Below are positions 17,116 to 39,725 of a DNA stretch of 64,000 nucleotides, one piece after another. Below the pieces are notes generated by a model that saw only the letters and a program-made list of their open reading frames with translations, was not told the DNA's origin and ran no database searches. Where the stretch lies: IMG/VR virus record IMGVR_UViG_2718218133_000001. The stretch is one strand, 5' to 3'. Position numbers and translations under genes: made by a program. This stretch comes from a virus. Lineage: Duplodnaviria > Heunggongvirae > Uroviricota > Caudoviricetes. Numbering within the stretch: position 1 is the stretch's first letter; each line of letters begins with the position of its first letter.

Positions 17116-17326
17116 ATTAATGGCACGTAAATACAACAAGTTGTCCCGTGAAGCGTTAAAGATGCTTCTTGATGGCGTGAGCCGCCGCAAGGTAAAGCAA
17201 TACCTGGTTGGTAAGCAAATTGGAGTCAGGACCGCTATTGCTGTGTTATGCCGTCAGGAAATGGTTGTGCTTAAACAGAGAATGCCGGGCAGCAGATAAA
17301 GCCCAATCAGTGATTAAAGGTGTGAT

Positions 17327-18370
17327 GTGAAAGCCATAATTACTCCCTTTGTACAGAAAGAGCTTGGCCTCGCCACGTTCAAAGTGGATCAGGAGGTCAG
17401 AAAGCTGGTGGAGGCTGGCCGTAAATTTATTATGGAGCCGGTGCCGCGTGAGTTAATCGAGCACATGGAAGACGGCCTCGTTGTTACCGAGCAAACCATG
17501 GCAACAAATGAGGCGTTGCAGCCGTTTTTTAACAGCGATGAACTGTTTCGCCGTATTGGTGGAATTGACTCGCTGGTGGCGTGGTTGCGTAGGAAAGAGG
17601 GTCAATGCCAGGCCGCAGATCGTAGTTGGTGTGACAACCATATTGTCCACGCTGAACGAGACAATAGCGCGGTGTTGTTGTGCTGGCATCACGATAACCA
17701 TTACCGGATGCGTGGTTTTAATGAGCTGAAAGAAACGCTGCACAATAATCGCGTTAACTGGATACTGGATGTCGCCCGTCAGGAAATGGGCCTTTCAAAT
17801 AGCCATGATTTAAGTATTCAGGAGCTGTGCTGGTGGGCTTTCATGCGCAACATGATGCACCTGATGCCGGAAGAAGTCTGCCGCATATCAATAAATAAGA
17901 TGAAGGCTACTCCGCAGGATAGCGGACCTCTGAAAGAGGCGGATATTCGCCCGTATGACGATCGCGCTACAGCATATGTTCAGATGATGGAAGAACGCGC
18001 CGCGCCGATGCGTGCAAAAGTATGCCCTGTGGATGTTGACTCCGATCCAGGTATGGCGCATTTCAAAATACCAAAACTTCAATCGCTAAAATTGCCCGAG
18101 TACATGGACTTTGTGGCTTCCCGTCCATGCTGTGGCTGTGGAGCTGCGGGAGCTGGCGCTCACATTACGCCTTATATCGTTCGTCATAGTCGATTATGCG
18201 CGCATGACATTTATGCTATTCCTCTGTGCCAGTCATGCCAGCGTGATATTGAGCGTGACCGCGATAATTGGGAGAAGACGCACGGTAGGCTGGCGATGCA
18301 TCAACGATTGTTCTTTGATTACGCGCTTGGAGTCGGCGCTATCACAAGTCATTCGTCGAGCGTTAGATAA
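17327..18370 (+). CDS. hypothetical protein (post-doc position; pdcB-like by synteny)
   Basis: 347 aa; Cys/His-rich C-terminus ([18 protein letters not shown]). Confidence 0.45.
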
Positions 18371-18371
18371 A

Positions 18372-18388
18372 ATTGCTCTAATGTATTG
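18372..18388 (+). promoter_or_regulatory. C1 operator-like 17-mer upstream of lpa
   Basis: attgctctaatgtattg; P1 lpa is C1-controlled, as remembered. Confidence 0.5.
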
Positions 18389-18458
18389 CTATTTCTTTAA
18401 TCGAGGGTATTATATTCGACGTTGATTAGTTGACATGGGCTAATCAGTAGGTGACAGG

Positions 18459-18911
18459 ATGTTACTTAACTGGCAGGGACGCCACTTCATGGAAATAAAT
18501 CACTCACGAATAACATCGTACGAGATTGCGGATTACATGATCCGCACTAAATCTCTTCTATCAGCGAAAGAACTCGCAGCAATTCTTGAAAAGGAATACC
18601 CGCATCTGGATGTCGATAAGCGCGATGTTTATCTGCGCTTAAAGGCTATCGCTGTGTCTAAGTATTCGTCTGTTTTGATTGATGACAGTACACGCCCACG
18701 TAGATTTCAGATCCACTCTCTGAATCCTGAATTCTTTCGCCGCAGCCGCGCTCCGCGCCGGTTTGATGAAAAACTCCAGAACGAACTCTATATGACGCAG
18801 GACGAAAAGGAACGCCGGGAGCACCAGCCTTGGGTGATGGCGCGTCAACTTTTCAATAAGGTGGTCCGTCAGCACCGTCATTACGGTAATGCCACATCCG
18901 CACGTATCTGA
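18459..18911 (+). CDS. lpa: late promoter activator Lpa-like protein
   Basis: 150-aa ORF immediately upstream of pacA with a C1 operator in front; assignment by position and size. Confidence 0.5.
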   Translation: MLLNWQGRHFMEINHSRITSYEIADYMIRTKSLLSAKELAAILEKEYPHLDVDKRDVYLRLKAIAVSKYSSVLIDDSTRPRRFQIHSLNPEFFRRSRAPRRFDEKLQNELYMTQDEKERREHQPWVMARQLFNKVVRQHRHYGNATSARI

Positions 18912-18997
18912 TTGATTGCTTGCCCGTTCCGGGCCTTTTGACATGTGACTTTCGTTACCCTCGCGTCAAAAAGAGTTTTATACGAAAGGAAGCATAA

Positions 18998-20191
18998 GTG
19001 ACCTGGGACGATCACAAGAAGAATTTTGCTCGCCTGGCGCGAGATGGTGGTTACACCATCGCACAGTATGCCGCCGAGTTTAATCTTAACCCTAATACCG
19101 CACGTCGTTATCTCCGTGCCTTCAAAGAAGACACCAGGACAGCGGACAGCCGCAAGCCAAATAAGCCAGTCAGGAAGCCTCTAAAAAGCATGATCATTGA
19201 TCACGCTAATGATCAACGTGCAGGTGATCACATTGTGGCTGAAATGGCTGAAAAACAAAGAGTTAATGCTGTTGTCAGTGCCGCAGTCGAGAACGCTAAG
19301 CGCCAAAATAAGCGCATAAATGATCGTTCTGATGATCATGACGTGATCACCCGCGCCCACCGTACCTTACGTGATCGCCTGGAACGCGACACCCTGGATG
19401 ATGATGGTGAACGCTTTGAATTCGAAGCTGGCGATTACCTGATAGATAACGTTGAAGCGCGGAAGGCCGCGCGCGCTATGTTGCGTCGGTCCGGGGCCGA
19501 TGTTCTGGAAACCACTCTTCTGGAAAAGTCTCTTTCTCATCTCCTTATGCTGGAGAACGCCAGGGATACGTGTATTCGCCTGGTGCAGGAAATGCGCGAT
19601 CAGCAAAAAGACGATGATGAAGGTACTCCGCCTGAATACCGTATCGCGAGCATGCTAAACAGCTGTTCCGCGCAGATAAGCAGCCTGATCAATACCATTT
19701 ACAGCATCCGGAATAACTATCGAAAAGAAAGCCGGGAGGCGGAAAAGCACGCTTTATCTATGGGGCAAGCTGGCATTGTTAAGCTGGCATACGAACGAAA
19801 GCGTGAAAATAACTGGTCAGTGCTGGAAGCGGCTGAATTCATCGAGGCGCATGGAGGAAAAGTGCCTCCCCTGATGCTGGAGCAAATCAAAGCCGATCTG
19901 CGTGCTCCTAAGACCAATACCGATGATGAGGAAAACCAAACAGCATCTGGCGCTCCATCACTTGAAGATCTGGATAAAATCGCGCGAGAACGGGCCGCCA
20001 GCCGCCGCGCTGATGCCGCATTGTGGATTGAGCATCGTAGAGAAGAAATTGCCGATATCGTCGATACAGGTGGTTATGGTGATGTCGATGCGGAAGGCAT
20101 ATCAAACGAAGCATGGCTTGAACAGGATCTGGACGAAGACGAGGAGGAAGACGAAGAAGTTACCCGCAAACTGTACGGGGATGATGATTAA
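18998..20191 (+). CDS. pacA: terminase small subunit PacA
   Basis: 397 aa; the GATC-hexamer pac cluster lies inside its 5' part; acidic C-terminus; GTG start. Confidence 0.8.
19191..19349 (+). other. pac packaging site (clustered TGATCA/G hexamers)
   Basis: Four hexamers at 19191-19230 and three at 19321-19349, the 4+3 arrangement of the P1 pac site. Confidence 0.8.
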
Positions 20192-28865: not shown

Positions 28866-31800
28866 TTATGCGTATTGTTGGATGACGGCCAGAACGTCCG
28901 CCAGGTTGTGTTTTGTCTCGATAATCCACCAGTTACCCGGGAAATCGCTGTTCTTCGCCTTCGCTGGCAGCCAGCGAGCGCCGAATTTCGCCTTGATTGC
29001 GTCTTTCGCACGGAAAAGAACGCCTTTCATGCCTGAGGCTTCCTGAAGCCCAAATACCTCGCCAGCGGCGAATTTTGGTGCGTACATCATCTTCAGGTCG
29101 GCGGTGGATACGCGATAATTCAGACCAAGAGACTGAGCTATGCTGGTGGCATCACCCTGTATTGATGATAACTCTTCTTGTTTCTCGTTTCTGGCGGCAA
29201 TTTCTTCCTCCGTGATGTTGCCAAGGGCCAGGTTTATCCGATCAGCGTCGGCCTGTTTCTCTTCATCGGTGCGCCCGGCAAGAACCGTGTTAATTCTCTG
29301 CAATATCTCCACATGATTCTTACGCATGCTGAGCAATTCCGGCGTAACTTCGTTAAGATCCACCAGCCCAAGGATGGCAAGGTCGGAAAACATTGATACC
29401 AGGTTGTAGGTCATGCGATAGCTGAGTTGGCCATAGGCTGATGGCAACTGCACCGCATCCATTTTATAGGCATCCATAAATTTAGAGCCGTCGTTTACGA
29501 CATCCGCAATTGCCGGTGTGATTTTTCCTGTGGTGGCGGCCTCCCTGATTGCTGTTACCCACGATTGAGTCAGCGCGGAAACTGCATGATTCAGATTGGC
29601 TTTGCGTTCTGCTGCAATGCGCGCGCTTGCAGCGTCCATTGACTGTTTGATCTCGTCTTTATTGCTGTAAATGCCAATGGTGCCAAACTGTGCTGTGGTG
29701 ATCTCATAATCTGACGCCCGGAACTCATTGGTACCGAAAATGGCATTGGTGACTTCAAGTTCAGAATCCCCGTTACGAGTAGCCCCCTGGCTTGTTTTTT
29801 CCGGCATTCTGGCGATCGCATCCGCTATTTTCTCCTGAATTGCTTCAGGGGATAGCGTATCTCCGTATGACGCGATTACATCGCCATAATTGGAGCCAAA
29901 CAGTTCAACCAGGAATGTTTCTGCCGAACGGATCTGGCGGTTATTCCCTTCCGACATCATACCAAGCACCCATTTTGCAATTGACGACTTCAGCGCGCCG
30001 TCACGGCGATCCGGGTAAACCGCATGCTTCAGTGGGTCCGTATAGGTACCAACAAAATCAATGCTATAGCCTGACTCTGTAGTCTGAACGCCGTATGAGT
30101 CAGTGATTTTGATCATGCCGCGCTGCTGGAAACGGTAGAAATCGTCACAGGAAATGATGTCGTTAATCCCGGCGATGGAGACGCCGCCACTGATTTTCTG
30201 CATAACAGCATCTTCATCGGGAGTTACATCAACCTGTTTATCCAGCGTCTTCACATCCCAGTTACCCGATTTGGTGCCTTTGAAGGTAAAGATGATCTCC
30301 ACGTCTGCGCGCTGGCTGTCGAAGTCCAGCGACTTAATGCGAACGATATCACCGGCACAATCGTAGTATTGGCCTACACGCCATGAGCGATCGCCGATAA
30401 CAAGGAACTCACTCGCATGGTTAACCAGGTCAGGATCAACATCCAGAATGCCTTTATTTATTGCATCCTCCACCAGCGGGCGCAGGCGTTTGATATCCGT
30501 CGCGGCCTTCTGAGTACGGTTCAATAATTTCTCATAGCGGGAGATGGCTTGAGAGATATTAGCCTTGCGCTGAATGGCGTTTTTCAACGACGCGCGATAC
30601 TGTGCTAACAACATACGGTCTGTGTGATGGACGCTCCCCCAGCGGGCCTTCCAGTCTGCGTTATCAGCTGCTTTGGCCATTACCGCCTGTTTGAATTTAG
30701 CTACCTCGGCGGTGGTCTTTTCAAGTTCCGCTTTGCTTCGCTCTAATTCAGCGGTAAGTACCTCCACATCCTCGCCAGCTGCGTGCTGCGCCTTGATGTA
30801 GTTCTGAAGGTCGATAGTAGCCTGTTCTTTCTGGCGAGCGCGTTGCGCGGCTTTCGCCTTATCCATTTGAACCTGCATCATTGCCAGACGTTCGCCATCA
30901 TCCTTAGCGGTATACATCTGCATTTCGATCATTTCGTTGGCGTCGGCGTTCTCCATTTCAGACTTATCTGAGCGGAGGATATCGGAGATCCAGCCTGCTT
31001 TACGCTTCAGCGTCTTCAGTCGGTATTCATCGAAAGAACCCTTGCCGCAGTAGTAGTGAACGCGAACGCTTGCACGGTTGGAGCCAACTCGTGCACCGCG
31101 ACCGTTACGTTGTGCGATACTGGCTGGTGTCCACGGCAACGTCAGGTGGTGGATATCCGTCGTTCCTCGATGCAGGTTGATACCCACCTCTGCCTTTTTG
31201 TTGCAGATGATGATCGGAGTCCGGCCCTCCTGGAAGTCGGCTGCAATCTTTTCCAGACCGCCCAACGACATTTCATTTTGCTGCGCGATATAGGCGTCAT
31301 ACAGAGCCATTTGCTCGTTGTATTTCGCTATCTGTGCATCTGTTGGTTCATCCGGTAGCTCTTTCGGCGGTTTAACCGCTTTCAGTTTCTTACCGGTTTT
31401 ACCTGCCTCGGCAACCGTCTGAGCATTCAGGATCCCCACCTTTGAAGGTTCAAGGTTAAGAGCATTGCAGATAATGCGCTTGAGCTTCTGGTGTTGCGTT
31501 TTTTCATCGGTGAAGATGATTTGCTTACCTTCCTGGAAAAACTCCTTCAGCGTGGCAATCAGCTTCGCGTATTTGGGCGTAACGGGGTGAGTTACGGTCT
31601 GTTCGTCAATGCCAAACCTGGCCAGGCGCTTATTCACTTCCTGCTCGAACGCTTCCGGAACCTGCAACTGAATAAACTCGCCCTTATCTATCAGGGAGTA
31701 TTGCGATTGCTGCGTGATTGAATCATCACTGTCGTCGTCTTCGCTGGTGGCTTGTTTAGGCAAACTGTCCGCCAGCTGCTGCACCGCATCGGCGTACTCC

Positions 31801-34800
31801 GGCAGGAAACGATAGGTGATCCGGCGATAGTACAGGTCCATGTCAGTACATACGCGGTCCATATCCCTGATTATTGAGAAGATCGGACGGGCTTTCTCGT
31901 GCTCAATCACGCCGTCTTCATTGACCGAGGTCGTTACGCCATTGTTGGCTTTGGCCGCCGCTTCCGCCTGCTGACGTAATTCTTCATACGCCGCCAGTTG
32001 TTCTTCAGTAAGTGGTGCATCCTGCTGGTGCTCGTCCAGTTCCGGGATCTCCACGGTATCCTTAACGTCTTCCGCCGTTTTAAGCGTTGTCCAGCGATGG
32101 AATATGCCGCGCAGCGCATCAAGGTTTTCAAAGCCCACCAGCGCCATTTTTTCTTCAACTTCACCGCTGATTTTCTGTACCGTTTCCAGCCTGGTCTTGC
32201 CGAAGAATTTAACGAAGTCATCAGGACCGTAGATCCCCATCTTCTGCCAGTATTCCTTCGGCAGCACATGAGAAAGCATGTTGTATGCATCGATCGGGGT
32301 GTTAACGACTGGCGTTGCAGTCAGGAGAACCGGTCCGCGCCCACCATTCTTTTTCATCAGGTACGCGTTTTTAATTGCCATATCCCGCGCCGATTGCGCC
32401 ACCGCGCTGGTGGGCAGATAGGCCAGTTGTGACGCTTCGCGACCATTTTTATAGCTATTGCGGTAGTTGTGACCTTCGTCAGCGATCACACTATCGAAGC
32501 CCATATCCTCAAAGTACGGATACTTCTCTGCTTTTTCGGTGCCGGTATCTGAATACTCCGACAATACCCGGCGACGCGCGGCCTCTTTGCGGTGGGAGTC
32601 GGAGTCCATTGCGCTGGCTACGCGCCCGGCGGCAACGAAGTCATAAAGCATATCCTGTGCATGCTCATCTACGGTGTCATCACGTAGCGGAATGCGGGCG
32701 TATTGTTCTTTGGTAAACACGACTGCACGGTAATTTGAGTGCGGGATCGCGTTCATCCGCGCCGTGATAGTGGCTTCATCTGCCAGTTTTAGGGCATCGC
32801 GCATAACTGGAGTGCCATCAGTACCAAGAACAGGTTTACCGTTCTCATCGAGCACCGGCACCTGGCGAATCTGATCGCCATCCATCAGCACATCAAGACC
32901 GACGAACAGGTAGTTACTGAATGCCTCTTCACTCAGGAATTCTTTTGCTTCGTAATACCAGTTTTCCAGCACTGATTTAGGCACTACATACGCAGTACGG
33001 GTGGAGCGACCGTTCTCATAGTTGAACGCTTCAAGCGCCAGCGCGGTCGTAGTTTTACCCAGCCCGGTGCCGAAGCCCAGGATGCCGCGCCCATCTTCGG
33101 ACAGTCGGCGCACTTCGCTATTCTGGTAATCAAATGGCTGGCGCTTACCGCTTAATCCCTTCAACCCAAGCGGATCGCCAGAGTGTTCATACGGGATATT
33201 GCTATTGAACACATCGTTGTATTTGGCAACCAGTTCATCGTAGCGATCGTGCGTCTTGATCCACTTATTGAACTGGTCCTCAAGCAGTGCCATCTGCTCG
33301 CGGTAGCCGTTCGCCGTCGCGCTATCTTTGCCACCGATACGCGCACCATTGAGATACTTTTCCAGCTGTGCCGGGAACCCGGTCGCGTTTTCACCTGATT
33401 TACGGTCCCACTCGTAGCGGATCTCGCCTGTTTCTTTATCCTTGCGCTGGACAACACCGTATCGGTGCCCGACGAACAGACCATCACCACCGTGATAGGT
33501 GTCAGAAACCATTTCGTCGCCTTCCAGCTGCACTGACTGCACATAGCGAAGATCCGGATAGCCGTTTTCCTGCAAAAATTCCAGAATGACGGAACGGTCG
33601 AACCAACGGCTATTGAGCTTAAAGCGGATATTCTCTGCTGGCGTCTTGATGCGCTTCTCTTCGATCGCTGCCAGCTGATTAAGGACGTTGTTCTTTACTG
33701 GACCGTCGGGGAGTGTGGCAAGGAATTCCTGTTTTGGTGCCACTATCTCGTTAATGTCGCCGCTGGTGGCGCGGGCGAACGGAACAATCCCGCCATACGG
33801 TGAAACCGCAATGCCAGGGGTGCTGGCCAATAAATTAAGCAACTCTTCATCACTGGCTGGCAATTCGCCGGTAAACGCAAGGCGGAAATCATCGAGCTGG
33901 ATTGGATCGCGGGTAAGATCGCTATAGAGATAACGCAGGGTGTCCTGATAGCTGGTGGAGTCATAACTGGCGCTGGAATCATGCGTAACCAGCTTTCCTG
34001 TCAGCTCGTCAGAAATAGTGCCATCCAGCTTAATTGCACCACGGAAAGCAAACCAGGCGCGCGCACCGCTTCCCGATAATTTAGCTATCGGACCGCGACC
34101 AGGGTTACCAAAACGGTCAATCTCTGCCTGCAAACGGGATACCAGAGAAAGGCGCTGCTGTTCGATTTGTTCAGCACTATGCCCGGCGGCCTTCATATCC
34201 TGATATTCAATTAACATCCGGCCAATCATCGCCCCACGATACAAGCGTTCACGGTATTTTTCAGGCTGGCTGTTAATCCAGTCCACCAGCTGCACCATAT
34301 CGTCGCTGATTGATGTGGTGTACTTATCGCGGACGTTTGCCATCTGGGTAAATGTCATACCGAGACGGCCTTCTGTTGTAGTCAGGTTACGCTGAAGAGC
34401 CTCCCAGCTATCCGCGCCATAACTGGCAGCATCAATTTTAAGTTCCTTCCCGGCATCAGCTTCAATCCAGCGACCACCAGCATATTTTTGCCATACGCCA
34501 TTAATCAGGCGCATTTCCCCTTCACCAACAACGTCTGCGGTCGGTGACGGTTCAACCATATCGAGCAAAGACCAGTCGATACGGCTTTCGAAACGATGAA
34601 TCAGCTTCGCTTTAAGAGCCTGGTTATCAATCTGACCGTCGGCACGAACCTCAATACGCCCCTGGAAGCCCTTTTCCTGGGTGCCATGAACAAACCGGCG
34701 GCCATCCTTTTCAAACCACTTGCCAGAAATAAACGTTGGCCAAAGCACATTTGCCGATTCAAGAGTGCTTTCATCCACCAGGGGGATTTTCTCAGCCATC

Positions 34801-35633
34801 TCTGCCGGATGTTTGCGCATCAGCACCACATCTACGACCGTACTGGTCCCGTTTGCGTCAAAAGTACCGGTAGGCAAGCGGTGGGCACCAAGAAATTCAG
34901 CTTTCCGTGATAGGCGCAGGCGTAACCGCTTCATGTTTGAACCTGAAACAATGGACGGCGGCACAATCACGCACATGAATCCGCCTGGCTTTATCTTGTC
35001 CAGCATGCGGAGCATGAAGTAAGAACCCATGTCCGTTTCTTCTGCGTAAGGCTTATCGATGTTGCGTGTGTTATCACGACCGCCGAACGGAACGTTACCC
35101 ACAACATGGTCGAATGAATCGTTAGGTGTGCTTATAGCCAGCTGTTCGAACGGGGAAATCTGTACGCTGTCTTCCGGGTGTAACAACTGGTTTATACGAC
35201 CGGAAACACTGCTGATCTCAGTCGCGGTCATCACCGTACCAACCGGTTTTGTCTCATTAAAAACGCCGGTTCCCGCCGATGGTTCCAGAGTGTTACCTAC
35301 GTCCGCGCCGTAGAGCTTCATGATCTCCCAGACACCTTCAGCGATCGGCTTTGGTGTGTAATATTCGGAGACGGACCCGCCAATGCCGCCTTCACCGGTG
35401 TACCCAGCCAGGATCTGGCGCTGTTCATCTGTCAGTGTCGCGCCGTCCACCAGCGAATTAAGCAAATCTATCGCCTTCTGATTCGCCTCCCGGCGCAGTC
35501 GGTCATAGCTTTTGCCTTCCACCTTTTCCACGCCGTATTTAATCGGCGCTCGGTGAGATTTTATTGCCCTAATGTATTTCAATATTTCGCTGACACTTGA
35601 ACAGCGAAACACCCCCATAGATAGCTTGTTCAT
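28866..35633 (-). CDS. darB: DarB antirestriction protein (N6-adenine methyltransferase plus DEAH-like helicase domains)
   Basis: 2255-aa ORF, the length remembered for P1 DarB; MTase-like GNVPFG motif; helicase motifs GTGLGKT and VIADEGHNY. Confidence 0.9.
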   Translation of the reverse strand: MNKLSMGVFRCSSVSEILKYIRAIKSHRAPIKYGVEKVEGKSYDRLRREANQKAIDLLNSLVDGATLTDEQRQILAGYTGEGGIGGSVSEYYTPKPIAEGVWEIMKLYGADVGNTLEPSAGTGVFNETKPVGTVMTATEISSVSGRINQLLHPEDSVQISPFEQLAISTPNDSFDHVVGNVPFGGRDNTRNIDKPYAEETDMGSYFMLRMLDKIKPGGFMCVIVPPSIVSGSNMKRLRLRLSRKAEFLGAHRLPTGTFDANGTSTVVDVVLMRKHPAEMAEKIPLVDESTLESANVLWPTFISGKWFEKDGRRFVHGTQEKGFQGRIEVRADGQIDNQALKAKLIHRFESRIDWSLLDMVEPSPTADVVGEGEMRLINGVWQKYAGGRWIEADAGKELKIDAASYGADSWEALQRNLTTTEGRLGMTFTQMANVRDKYTTSISDDMVQLVDWINSQPEKYRERLYRGAMIGRMLIEYQDMKAAGHSAEQIEQQRLSLVSRLQAEIDRFGNPGRGPIAKLSGSGARAWFAFRGAIKLDGTISDELTGKLVTHDSSASYDSTSYQDTLRYLYSDLTRDPIQLDDFRLAFTGELPASDEELLNLLASTPGIAVSPYGGIVPFARATSGDINEIVAPKQEFLATLPDGPVKNNVLNQLAAIEEKRIKTPAENIRFKLNSRWFDRSVILEFLQENGYPDLRYVQSVQLEGDEMVSDTYHGGDGLFVGHRYGVVQRKDKETGEIRYEWDRKSGENATGFPAQLEKYLNGARIGGKDSATANGYREQMALLEDQFNKWIKTHDRYDELVAKYNDVFNSNIPYEHSGDPLGLKGLSGKRQPFDYQNSEVRRLSEDGRGILGFGTGLGKTTTALALEAFNYENGRSTRTAYVVPKSVLENWYYEAKEFLSEEAFSNYLFVGLDVLMDGDQIRQVPVLDENGKPVLGTDGTPVMRDALKLADEATITARMNAIPHSNYRAVVFTKEQYARIPLRDDTVDEHAQDMLYDFVAAGRVASAMDSDSHRKEAARRRVLSEYSDTGTEKAEKYPYFEDMGFDSVIADEGHNYRNSYKNGREASQLAYLPTSAVAQSARDMAIKNAYLMKKNGGRGPVLLTATPVVNTPIDAYNMLSHVLPKEYWQKMGIYGPDDFVKFFGKTRLETVQKISGEVEEKMALVGFENLDALRGIFHRWTTLKTAEDVKDTVEIPELDEHQQDAPLTEEQLAAYEELRQQAEAAAKANNGVTTSVNEDGVIEHEKARPIFSIIRDMDRVCTDMDLYYRRITYRFLPEYADAVQQLADSLPKQATSEDDDSDDSITQQSQYSLIDKGEFIQLQVPEAFEQEVNKRLARFGIDEQTVTHPVTPKYAKLIATLKEFFQEGKQIIFTDEKTQHQKLKRIICNALNLEPSKVGILNAQTVAEAGKTGKKLKAVKPPKELPDEPTDAQIAKYNEQMALYDAYIAQQNEMSLGGLEKIAADFQEGRTPIIICNKKAEVGINLHRGTTDIHHLTLPWTPASIAQRNGRGARVGSNRASVRVHYYCGKGSFDEYRLKTLKRKAGWISDILRSDKSEMENADANEMIEMQMYTAKDDGERLAMMQVQMDKAKAAQRARQKEQATIDLQNYIKAQHAAGEDVEVLTAELERSKAELEKTTAEVAKFKQAVMAKAADNADWKARWGSVHHTDRMLLAQYRASLKNAIQRKANISQAISRYEKLLNRTQKAATDIKRLRPLVEDAINKGILDVDPDLVNHASEFLVIGDRSWRVGQYYDCAGDIVRIKSLDFDSQRADVEIIFTFKGTKSGNWDVKTLDKQVDVTPDEDAVMQKISGGVSIAGINDIISCDDFYRFQQRGMIKITDSYGVQTTESGYSIDFVGTYTDPLKHAVYPDRRDGALKSSIAKWVLGMMSEGNNRQIRSAETFLVELFGSNYGDVIASYGDTLSPEAIQEKIADAIARMPEKTSQGATRNGDSELEVTNAIFGTNEFRASDYEITTAQFGTIGIYSNKDEIKQSMDAASARIAAERKANLNHAVSALTQSWVTAIREAATTGKITPAIADVVNDGSKFMDAYKMDAVQLPSAYGQLSYRMTYNLVSMFSDLAILGLVDLNEVTPELLSMRKNHVEILQRINTVLAGRTDEEKQADADRINLALGNITEEEIAARNEKQEELSSIQGDATSIAQSLGLNYRVSTADLKMMYAPKFAAGEVFGLQEASGMKGVLFRAKDAIKAKFGARWLPAKAKNSDFPGNWWIIETKHNLADVLAVIQQYA

Positions 35634-35699: not shown

Positions 35700-37430
<1,731 letters not shown>

Positions 37431-38705
37431 ACGGCAAACATTCCCAATTCACAGAGTCCGACCTAAACCACATGAAGCGGCTTAGGAATTACAGACTCTC
37501 CAAGGGCTAACACTGCCAGCCCGGCAGCTTTTATATTACGGGCCGCGTTAATATCACGATCATGCTCTGCGCCACATTCCGGGCAGTGCCATTTACGAAT
37601 ATTAAGAGGCATTTTTTGCATGGTGAAGCCGCAACTGCTGCAACGTTTGGAAGAAGGGAAATACTGGTCGATAGCGACAATGCTACGTCCACCCCATTCT
37701 CCTTTGTACTGGAGTTGGCGTACAAGTTCGCTCCAGCCTGCGTCAGCTATTGCTTTAGATAGCTTCGGGTTACGGATCATGTTTTTCACTTTAAGGGATT
37801 CGACGCAAACAACTTGGTTTTCGTTAATCAGTTTGCGGGACAACTTATGCAGGTTATCCATCCGACAATCGACTATTCTCGCGTGGAGGCGGGCAACCTT
37901 TAAACGTGCTTTGGCGCGGTTCTTTGAGCCTTTTTGTTTCTTGCTCAATCTGCGCTGTAACACTGCTAATCGCTTCGCGTATTTAGCGTTGTGTCGAGGA
38001 TTGCCAGTTTTAAAACCGGTATCGGTGACGAACAAATCTTTTAAACCAATATCAATGCCGACCGTGGAAACGGTGATCGGCAGTGATACAGGCTCAAACT
38101 CGCAGAGACAGGATACAAAATATCGTCCGGCAGCATCCCTGGTGATAGTGACAGTGGATGGAGCAGACGGCAACGGACGGCTCCAGCGAACATCTAACGG
38201 CTCTTTGCTCTTTGCCATGTACAGCTTGCCGTCACGGTATTTAAATGCGCTGGCAGTTAGTTCTGCGGCCTGTTTATGCCGCTTGCTCTTAAAAACTGGG
38301 TATGCAGCACGCCCGGCGAAAAAGTTAGCAAAAGCCGTTTGTTGGTGGCGCAGAGACTGCTGGAGGGGGACGCAGGAAACGTCATTCAGCCAAGCGAATT
38401 CTGGTTCTTTTTTCAGTGCCGTTAATTTGGCGCTGGCTTGTGCATAGCCGACCCTCTCATGGCGTGCGTAGTACGCATCGGTGCGCCAGCGAAGGAGGCT
38501 GTTATAGACAAAACGCACACACCCAAAAGTCCGGGCTAATAGCTCGGTTTGTTCGGGAGTTGGATAGAATCGATATTTATAGGCACGCTTCATGTTCTAT
38601 ATAATACATTGAAACTAATGAGTATATAAATGAATACACGGACGAAAATGTTATCAAAGCCAATATACCAACAGACATTAGGTAAGGTAGCTGGAGGGCA
38701 ATATA
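37431..38705 (-). mobile_element. IS200/IS605-family tnpB-only insertion; ends not defined
   Basis: Intact tnpB on the opposite strand fills the gap between two co-directional head genes; no Y1 tnpA present; AT-rich 112-bp left flank. Confidence 0.55.
37463..38593 (-). CDS. tnpB: TnpB (OrfB) RNA-guided endonuclease-like transposon protein
   Basis: 376 aa starting MKRAYKYRFYPT; RuvC-I GIDIGLKD, RuvC-II VCVESL, zinc finger CSSCG..CPECG, RuvC-III HDRDINAARNI. Confidence 0.9.
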   Translation of the reverse strand: MKRAYKYRFYPTPEQTELLARTFGCVRFVYNSLLRWRTDAYYARHERVGYAQASAKLTALKKEPEFAWLNDVSCVPLQQSLRHQQTAFANFFAGRAAYPVFKSKRHKQAAELTASAFKYRDGKLYMAKSKEPLDVRWSRPLPSAPSTVTITRDAAGRYFVSCLCEFEPVSLPITVSTVGIDIGLKDLFVTDTGFKTGNPRHNAKYAKRLAVLQRRLSKKQKGSKNRAKARLKVARLHARIVDCRMDNLHKLSRKLINENQVVCVESLKVKNMIRNPKLSKAIADAGWSELVRQLQYKGEWGGRSIVAIDQYFPSSKRCSSCGFTMQKMPLNIRKWHCPECGAEHDRDINAARNIKAAGLAVLALGESVIPKPLHVV

Positions 38706-39725
38706 ATGACTGATGTTTTGAAAACGGTCACTGACCGCTTTTGTCTCTATAGCAATGCTCGAAAAGGTCGCCAGAACGGGCGACAGTATGTATTAAGCGC
38801 GGTTAAGACCATGCTTGAAAGCAAGGAAACTCAGGAAGGTTTACGCCTTGGAGAGCTTTTCGGCTATTACGGTCACGGTCGCCGACAGCTGACCGGCAAA
38901 CTGGAAGTACCAGAAACCAGCGTAATCATGGTGGAAGGTCGCCCGGTCGTAATCGACAATGTTCCAGCGTGCCGCACAGTGGCTATATCCGTTGACGACA
39001 ACGGCATCGTTACCCATACACAGGAAATTCTTAACACAGAGCCGGGTAAAATTGTCGCCGCGATGATCGAAAGCCGAGCTGGTGGCTGGAGCTGGGCCAC
39101 TGGCGGGCGTGAGTCCGGGAAAATCGCTGTAACCACCAGCTTCCATGGTGTGGATTATGTGACAACGCCGAACTATATCAGTCTGGATCATCCTGCCAGC
39201 GCCGGAATGTTTGAAAGCGCGGATTCTAAATCTTTACTGGCAGAGTCCCTGGCGGCGCATGGGTACTCCGACGAGTCAGTGCAGGCCGTTATATCCCATT
39301 ACGGCAAAATGGCTGAACTGGAAATGATGGTGGAGGCGACAGAGCGTACGGCAGAACTGGAAACTGCACTACTCGAAAGCCAGGGCCGCCACCTCGAAGC
39401 AATGGCTAAGATCGCAGATGCTGAAGCGCGAATCGCTTTGCTGGAGGAAACAGCGGGTATCCGCGACGATGTGCTGGCAGCAATGCAAGACGAACTGGAT
39501 AACCTCCCGATCTTCGTCTCCGCCGCCCAAAAAGACGCATTCCGCCTCAAAGAACCTGGTGATGCAAAAATCGTTGCCACACTTTTCGAATCTCTGATCA
39601 AAGTTGGCGCACGCAACTTGCCTGTCACCAAGAAAATTAAGGAGGTTCCGCAAGCGGCTAACGTCCAGGCACCGCGTGAGACAAGCATCATCACGTTTAA
39701 TAATTCAATCAATCCGTTTAAATAA
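38706..39725 (+). CDS. head-processing protease-position protein (Pro-like)
   Basis: 339-aa ORF with GGAGGG RBS; coiled-coil C-terminus; assignment by synteny only. Confidence 0.45.
   Translation: MTDVLKTVTDRFCLYSNARKGRQNGRQYVLSAVKTMLESKETQEGLRLGELFGYYGHGRRQLTGKLEVPETSVIMVEGRPVVIDNVPACRTVAISVDDNGIVTHTQEILNTEPGKIVAAMIESRAGGWSWATGGRESGKIAVTTSFHGVDYVTTPNYISLDHPASAGMFESADSKSLLAESLAAHGYSDESVQAVISHYGKMAELEMMVEATERTAELETALLESQGRHLEAMAKIADAEARIALLEETAGIRDDVLAAMQDELDNLPIFVSAAQKDAFRLKEPGDAKIVATLFESLIKVGARNLPVTKKIKEVPQAANVQAPRETSIITFNNSINPFK

Follow-up and report, generated by a model that had tools for sequence, protein, structure and literature searches.

A tnpB-only IS200/IS605-type element docked at the start codon of the head-processing gene pro in a P1-like phage-plasmid

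The prt/pro junction and the ends of the insert

The 64,000-nt stretch of Caudoviricetes DNA analysed here (IMG/VR record IMGVR_UViG_2718218133_000001; hereafter the window, at its full length) is a P1-like phage-plasmid that carries a tnpB-only IS200/IS605-type element of 1,295 bp (37411..38705, minus strand) between two head genes transcribed in the same direction. Comparison with phage P1 places the left end (LE) of the element at 38705 and its right end (RE) at 37411. On the RE side lies prt, the portal gene (35709..37430, plus strand), recognized from its open reading frame (ORF), the P1 comparison and the PHROG portal profile, the C-terminus of which is changed by the insert. On the LE side lies pro, a head-processing gene (38706..39725, plus strand), intact by ORF and P1 comparison. 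The tnpB gene (37463..38593, minus strand) stands antisense between the two, as an earlier note made from the letters of the window had described. The order of phage genes is darB (28866-35633, minus strand), prt, pro, and then lyz and ssb. The insert is of an ordinary mobile-element type, already labelled TnpB by automatic annotation, and its kind is known: within the IS200/IS605 family it belongs with the non-autonomous, tnpB-only (IS1341-type) elements, and its relatives include ISEc42 and gipA of prophage Gifsy-1.

The boundaries are defined to the base. In phage P1 the genes prt (17312-19021) and pro (19014-20033) have 8 nt in common, and the site reads, unbroken, GGGAAACGATA followed directly by ATGACTG; the window carries its extra DNA exactly between these two parts. 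A 3-bp ambiguity (ATA) at the junction was settled by the RE terminus of relatives, all of which end in TCAA where aligned, with GTCAA in all but two (TGTCAA), and the element is therefore 37411-38705. The earlier note had given 37431-38705; its right limit stands, while the true left limit lies 20 bp further to the left, inside the prt frame. Judged against the empty P1 site, the insertion took place 3′ of the specific tetranucleotide TCAT, and it shows neither a target duplication nor inverted terminal repeats. Read on the tnpB strand, the element sits 3′ of a TCAT that is the reverse complement of ATGA (38706..38709, plus strand), i.e., the pro start codon and one further base. From the P1 comparison and from relatives, this tetranucleotide adjoining LE is also the putative target-adjacent motif (TAM). 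With respect to pro, the element lies exactly between the native ribosome-binding site and the ATG. That this is a real insertion with defined ends follows from its absence in phage P1 and in 20 of 21 P1-like phage records.

Both phage genes have received element DNA at the junction. The last 20 nt of prt (37411..37430, plus strand; ORF and P1 comparison) are derived from RE and supply the codons I-D-N-C-P-P and a stop, so that the C-terminus of Prt changes from NDND* in P1 to NDIDNCPP* in the window, and its length from 569 to 573 aa; the match to the PHROG portal profile ends at residue 567. Between the last base of the prt stop (37430) and the tnpB stop codon (37463-37465) there are 32 bp, the distance noticed earlier. 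On the other side, the end of LE places GGAGGG (38693..38698, plus strand) 7 nt upstream of the pro ATG, in the position held by GAGGG in P1. The sequence before the untouched ATG is thus GGAGGG-CAATATA-ATG in the window and GAGGG-AAACGATA-ATG in P1, and the arrangement GGAGG-N7-ATG recurs in relatives. That the element cuts into prt, docks at the pro ATG with a new Shine-Dalgarno sequence and has lost its left-end hairpin (see below) goes beyond the earlier note. We hypothesize that the insert would be tolerated through these two features, with RE closing the prt frame after four extra residues and LE putting a GGAGGG-N7 Shine-Dalgarno in front of pro; this replacement ribosome-binding site would then serve the expression of pro.

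The insertion parts pro physically from upstream transcription, as the earlier note had pointed out: pro now lies 1.3 kb further from LPpro, which stands upstream of prt and is the sole late promoter that the annotation of P1 gives for the prt-pro pair. A candidate outward sigma-70-like promoter in LE, facing pro (TTTATA-18-TATAAT; 38576..38605, plus strand), is a consensus match only, and the region has four such matches where chance alone would give 3.4. A terminator-like hairpin with a T-run on the prt-sense strand (37513..37527, plus strand) is likewise a consensus match only; it consists of the complement of helix 1 of the RNA described below, followed by CTTTTATATT, and resembles an intrinsic terminator for prt-sense transcription.

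TnpB, its putative RNA and the predicted target

The TnpB protein of 376 aa matches the Pfam families HTH_OrfB_IS605, OrfB_IS605 and Cas12f1-like_TNB, each above its cut-off, and its residues 3-365 align to ISDra2 TnpB (8exa/8bf8) with E=6.6e-77. In this alignment the RuvC residues D181, E265 and D347 coincide with D191, E278 and D361 of ISDra2, and C318, C321, C337 and C340 coincide with its zinc-finger cysteines; all the RuvC and CxxC..CxxC residues credited to the protein on first reading are present. Two special kinds of TnpB-related element were considered and rejected. A TldR, that is, a nuclease-dead repressor derived from TnpB, is ruled out by the intact D181, E265 and D347, and an IStron by the lack of any Rfam intron family match in 36900-39200. 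The tnpB ORF is intact in every copy inspected. The copies examined in P1-like genomes diverge by no more than 1.2%; their unique differences in tnpB number 12 synonymous and 11 non-synonymous (dN/dS of about 0.3), and LE shows none.

Upstream of RE the family shares a structured RNA. The 140-nt stretches preceding RE in 44 family members were aligned and used to test a model of five helices. Of the alignment cells at its 35 pairs, 90.9% form standard pairs, compared with 38-47% when the partners are slid. Compensatory changes on both sides were found in 23 of the 35 pairs, and none of 500 shuffles reached the observed values; RNAalifold independently yields the same helices. In the window this omega-RNA-like scaffold covers 118 nt (37411..37528, minus strand), shares 63 nt with the 3′ end of tnpB and reaches its own end at RE (37411), with helix 5 (37420-37439) being the RE hairpin; the corresponding covariance model gives one hit in the window. 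The RE hairpin of the window departs from the consensus by one G-C pair that is flipped, by a U-A pair and by G-U pairs; since all of these stay in register, RNA pairing is preserved. Across the family, two positions of this hairpin (columns 118/135 and 121/132 of alignment A1) have U-G as their most common state or as a frequent one. Such a combination pairs in RNA and would be a T-G mismatch in the single-stranded DNA (ssDNA) form bound by TnpA.

In Rfam, no family reached its gathering score for the window RNA or for its counterparts in the distant relatives L057 and L050. The nearest matches were RAGATH-18 (RF03064) at 37441-37506 of the window (minus strand), scoring 21.8 against a gathering score of 44.9, and HgcC (RF00062) on the omega-RNA core of L057 (3606-3730) and L050 (3629-3716), scoring 30 and 25 against 50. 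With scores so far below gathering, the RNA is not assignable to either family. The pattern suggests that RAGATH-18 and HgcC may themselves be omega-RNAs of other TnpB lineages.

In ISDra2, the omega-RNA runs past RE into the flanking DNA, which supplies the guide. By analogy with ISDra2 TnpB, the 20 nt located 3′ of RE (37391..37410, minus strand), 5′-UAUCGUUUCCCUCUUUAAAG, would encode the guide here if transcription continues beyond 37411. The earlier note had expected a guide RNA that overlaps the 3′ end of tnpB and reads into the 3′ end of the portal gene, and the covariation-supported RNA, which reaches RE with the 3′ end of prt beyond it, is in line with that expectation. The 20 nt of the putative guide lie antisense to the last part of prt and to the original ribosome-binding site of pro. 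TCAT plus the 20-mer is, by construction, the empty prt/pro junction, and the predicted TnpB target including its TAM is TCAT+TATCGTTTCCCTCTTTAAAG. In carriers, the same 20-mer is preceded by TCAA rather than TCAT, so that the carrier's own copy would be spared.

The element has no transposase of its own. No Y1 transposase homologue was detected by tblastn in the 64-kb window, as the first reading had it, nor within 2.5 kb of close relatives, and a Y1 transposase was found beside relatives only at the level of about 40% identity; this fits a non-autonomous tnpB-only member. Searches by blastn, tblastn and covariance model found no second copy of the element and no orphan omega-RNA in the window. 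The LE region (38594..38705, minus strand; 112 nt, including the 5′ region of tnpB) is homologous to the LE of relatives over its first 22 nt or so and is without a stable subterminal hairpin: its ssDNA fold of -1.5 kcal/mol (z=+0.76) is no better than that of shuffled sequence, whereas in the close relative L010 an 8-bp G+C hairpin occupies this place, and L006 has a weaker stem. Of the two subterminal hairpins, the window copy thus keeps the one at RE and lacks the one at LE. Given the missing tnpA and the lost LE hairpin, this copy probably cannot transpose any more, and immobility is in keeping with its single location. The further copies that the earlier note proposed to look for do exist as relatives at many other sites, including several sites in one Serratia and one Klebsiella genome, whereas this exact lineage was found only at the one P1 site.

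Docking at start codons and occupancy among P1-like plasmids

A scan of one genome per species yielded 79 loci with relatives, to which a viral scan added loci L120-L147. By their targets, relatives form two groups. One lies 3′ of TCAT followed by CAGAATGCCTCC and is found among L006 and L008-L065 of the genome scan and L120-L147 of the viral scan. The other lies 3′ of TTAT or TTAC followed by CAATTTGCGCG; its members L007, L017, L018, L022, L024, L025, L035, L038-L040, L044, L051, L056 and L061 have no Shine-Dalgarno in LE, and several of them sit in the T-tract after a terminator-like hairpin (e.g., L039 and L024).

At 32 of 38 independent TCAT sites, the ATG complementary to the CAT of the target is the first codon of an opposite-strand ORF at least 80 aa long, compared with 26% of random TCAT sites in the same loci. 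A stricter test on reconstructed empty sites, which demanded an ORF of at least 80 aa together with an in-frame stop within 30 codons upstream, was passed by 20 of 32 sites and by 7.1% of controls (binomial 1e-15). These ATGs are true gene starts, since full-length NCBIfam models for YbhB, MiaB, Grx2, CyaY, PdxB and LptG align from model position 1 or 2 within the first six residues of the protein. The flank past RE is the gene's own spacer, with a recognizable Shine-Dalgarno in 17 of 28 sites. On the host-gene strand, the LE terminus provides GGAGG-N7-ATG at 26 of the 38 TCAT sites overall and in most enterobacterial elements. A Halomonas-type subgroup is without GGAGG in LE, yet most of its copies adjoin ORF starts.

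The empty site predicted for ybhB is uninterrupted in 4,947 E. coli genomes, which gives a second validated empty site, where insertion 3′ of the tetranucleotide, again with neither inverted terminal repeats nor a duplicated target, can be read off directly. Phage copies likewise adjoin start codons, namely those of the Gifsy-1 homologue of lambda U and of minor tail, tail-completion, baseplate-hub and connector genes, and a plasmid copy docks at the start of trbC on a mobilizable IncU plasmid. This last copy, an 85%-identity relative at 3897-5190 of Citrobacter freundii p112298-KPC (L092), lies antisense among conjugation genes with its LE adjoining trbC, and it recurs on many Citrobacter and Enterobacter plasmids. 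On the strength of these comparisons, the P1 insertion appears to be one case of a general docking strategy of TCAT elements. The bias could come either from target choice by the cognate TnpA or from the survival of harmless insertions. In the searchable literature, which leaves ISfinder and many subscription journals out of reach, we found no description of docking at start codons or Shine-Dalgarno sequences, nor of a TnpB with a TCAT TAM, and ISEc42 appears there in lists of insertion sequences only.

The element is far from universal among P1-like genomes, in favour of the earlier note, which its presence in all such phages would have contradicted. It is present in one of 21 P1-like phage records, vB_EcoM-673R5 (L002, ON470615), and in 38 complete E. 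coli genome records at an identity of at least 95%. The P1 prt/pro region occurs in 490 E. coli genomes and is uninterrupted in 447, so that occupancy is about 8%. Context was inspected for eight loci at this identity level, and in each the copy adjoins pro on a P1-like replicon; the annotation at the remaining hits agrees with the same site. In PLSDB the insert was also found in P1-like plasmids of E. albertii and E. fergusonii. The record of vB_EcoM-673R5 annotates prt as two fragments and tnpB as a truncated coding sequence of 243 aa; a 1-nt shift in its prt relative to the window suggests sequencing or assembly errors in that record.

The chromosomal hits in E. coli ST2747 were considered as a possible separate site and rejected, because they represent the same pro-adjacent copy in a rearranged P1-like segment. 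In this strain (L003, CP007392-4), the P1-like segment with the element is assembled in the chromosome, and its sequence leaves prt 50 bp beyond RE, not at RE, and continues into a ref gene with a frameshift and into non-phage genes.

The empty junctions fall into two alleles. The exact 43-nt site (TAM, 11 nt upstream and 28 nt of flank) is present in 269 E. coli genomes, in which CGATA precedes the ATG and the guide would match perfectly; in 153 genomes the junction reads CGAGA before the ATG. The difference lies at target position 2 (window 37409, plus strand) and changes one Prt residue from D to E. All occupied copies inspected have the TAT allele of this position. Over 2,420 bp of flank the occupied plasmids do not cluster, and several of their haplotypes are common to empty ones: the occupied L091 is nearest to the empty L093, and the pro haplotype of the occupied L090 is nearest to that of the empty L095. 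Single-nucleotide polymorphisms (SNPs) differ within 100 bp of the junction, and about 5% of flank sites vary. Monophyly of the occupied plasmids was looked for and not found from these flanks, which are mosaic.

Possible roles of the element and comparison with known systems

Our preferred reading, which we consider somewhat better than even, is that of a tnpB-only element docked at pro by a single entry, whose TnpB and omega-RNA would target empty prt/pro junctions. One insertion event in an ancestral P1-like phage-plasmid would have placed the element on the minus strand, 3′ of TCAT and between the pro ribosome-binding site and the ATG. It would still make TnpB and an omega-RNA of roughly 120-140 nt running out of RE, and a guide of 16-20 nt together with the TAM TCAT would specify the uninterrupted prt/pro junction. 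The TnpB complex would then cut P1-like genomes without the element, and the break would either be mended from an element-bearing copy, resulting in homing or retention, or lead to elimination of the rival genome. The mosaic flanks could fit such copying of the element between backbones.

Several points weigh against this reading. The mosaic flanks would equally fit ordinary recombination after a single old insertion, and an occupancy of about 8% is low for an efficient drive. We infer RNA expression, cleavage, homing and TnpB activity from sequence, and TCAT as the TAM is deduced from flanks alone. The dN/dS value is based on 23 substitutions, and one copy (L089) has seven non-synonymous versus six synonymous changes. 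In the 153 empty genomes of the second allele, TCT in place of TAT creates a TAM-proximal mismatch at target position 2; with about 5% of flank sites variable, this dimorphism could reflect either resistance or neutrality. On the side of the phage genes, several terminator-like hairpins lie on the prt-sense strand of the element and pro may be under-expressed, while the Shine-Dalgarno-like CCTCC may double as part of the LE stem in relatives. Finally, vB_EcoM-673R5, the one phage record with the insert, is known as an in-silico prophage prediction only and not from plaques.

It is also conceivable, though in our view rather unlikely, that the element is an inert passenger, a decaying remnant inactive in P1 biology that is harmless, still intact because it is young, and retained also because its deletion would harm the pro ribosome-binding site and ATG. 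The lost LE hairpin, the missing tnpA and a single site at 8% frequency would all be expected of such a remnant, and a divergence of at most 1.2% leaves little time for decay, with non-synonymous changes at least equal to synonymous ones in one copy. Nevertheless, the ORF is intact in all copies inspected with a synonymous excess overall, the RE hairpin persists, its changes being compensatory or of the G-U kind and leaving RNA pairing intact, and the element occurs on several flank haplotypes, all of which speaks against mere decay.

If TnpB is active, its outcome need not be copying. P1-like plasmids compete with one another through incompatibility, and TnpB with its omega-RNA could serve the carrier mainly by destroying incoming or co-resident insert-free P1 relatives rather than by spreading the element, an exclusion function that we regard as improbable. 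In 269 genomes the predicted guide finds its match within an essential late region that is conserved, and the TAM-proximal dimorphism at position 2 would confer resistance on the other 153. However, nothing tells this apart from homing, since the cut is the same and the outcome is set by repair, and the dimorphism is one SNP among many in these variable flanks. A regulatory role seems to us the most doubtful proposal, be it that tnpB and omega-RNA transcripts, antisense to the prt 3′ end and to read-through transcripts, modulate prt and pro as an antisense module, or that TnpB acts on the host as claimed for GipA. In its favour is the position of the guide region, opposite to the end of prt and to the native ribosome-binding site of pro; gipA, a relative with 79.7% nucleotide identity, is annotated as a Peyer's-patch virulence factor; and functional sense-overlapping RNAs of IS1341-type tnpB genes are reported from archaea (PMC4615843). 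Against this stand the catalytic residues, intact unlike those of TldR regulators, and the 92% of P1-like plasmids that manage without the element.

Returning to the reading of a docked element that targets empty junctions, we can join it with the family pattern in a broader proposal, which we put forward as tentative. TCAT elements as a whole would be start-codon dockers, many of them with a portable Shine-Dalgarno in LE that keeps the host gene alive, and the P1 copy would be a non-transposing RNA-guided gene drive or exclusion device for which TCT is a resistance allele. What appears worth attention in the data themselves is the base-precise docking at pro with a donated ribosome-binding site, the family habit to which it belongs and the three-allele structure of the population. 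P1 is an object of classical genetics, and the occupied (about 8%), matching-empty (269) and seed-mismatched-empty (153) alleles make RNA-guided homing or exclusion testable by simple crosses. Docking at gene starts, with a ribosome-binding site supplied by the insert, would account for the persistence of tnpB-only elements in operons, phage structural modules and a conjugation-gene cluster with no lethal effect on their carriers; if true, it would let them live inside essential operons, phage late operons included, and it suggests a design for harmless insertion cassettes. An enterobacterial TnpB of 376 aa with a putative TCAT TAM may also be of use in genome editing. If TnpB proves inactive, the finding shrinks to an ordinary, already annotated insertion polymorphism.

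Among known systems, one of the closest counterparts is ISDra2 TnpB of Deinococcus radiodurans (8exa, 8bf8 and 8h1j), which shares full-length homology, the RuvC D-E-D triad, the CxxC..CxxC finger, a structured RNA over the 3′ end of tnpB up to RE, and insertion 3′ of a short target that is not duplicated. In ISDra2 a tnpA is present and the target is TTGAT, whereas the window element is without tnpA, has TCAT as its putative target and TAM, docks at start codons and has a nuclease activity that is predicted. Nearer in sequence are ISEc42, the ISfinder name that appears in the annotation of ON470615, and the tnpB element between ybhB and bioA of E. coli, with about 80% nucleotide identity, a tnpB-only build of about 1.29 kb, an RE ending in GTCAA, the TCAT target and a Shine-Dalgarno in LE; these lie at another locus and keep the folding LE stem that the P1 copy has lost. 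The gipA element of the Salmonella prophage Gifsy-1 is likewise tnpB-only and antisense between co-directional late genes (homologues of Z and U), with its TCAT adjoining the start codon of the U-like gene; it differs in having been described as a virulence factor, a phenotype that is not known for the window element, and in belonging to another phage family and gene pair. Homing endonuclease genes and the retention of transposons by TnpB offer the functional parallel, in that occupancy is polymorphic at one site and the nuclease is predicted to cut the empty allele only. In the retention model of Meers et al. (bioRxiv 10.1101/2023.03.14.532601), TnpB re-cuts donor sites after excision by TnpA; since the P1 element has no TnpA, any drive would be predicted to act instead between co-resident or infecting phage-plasmid genomes.

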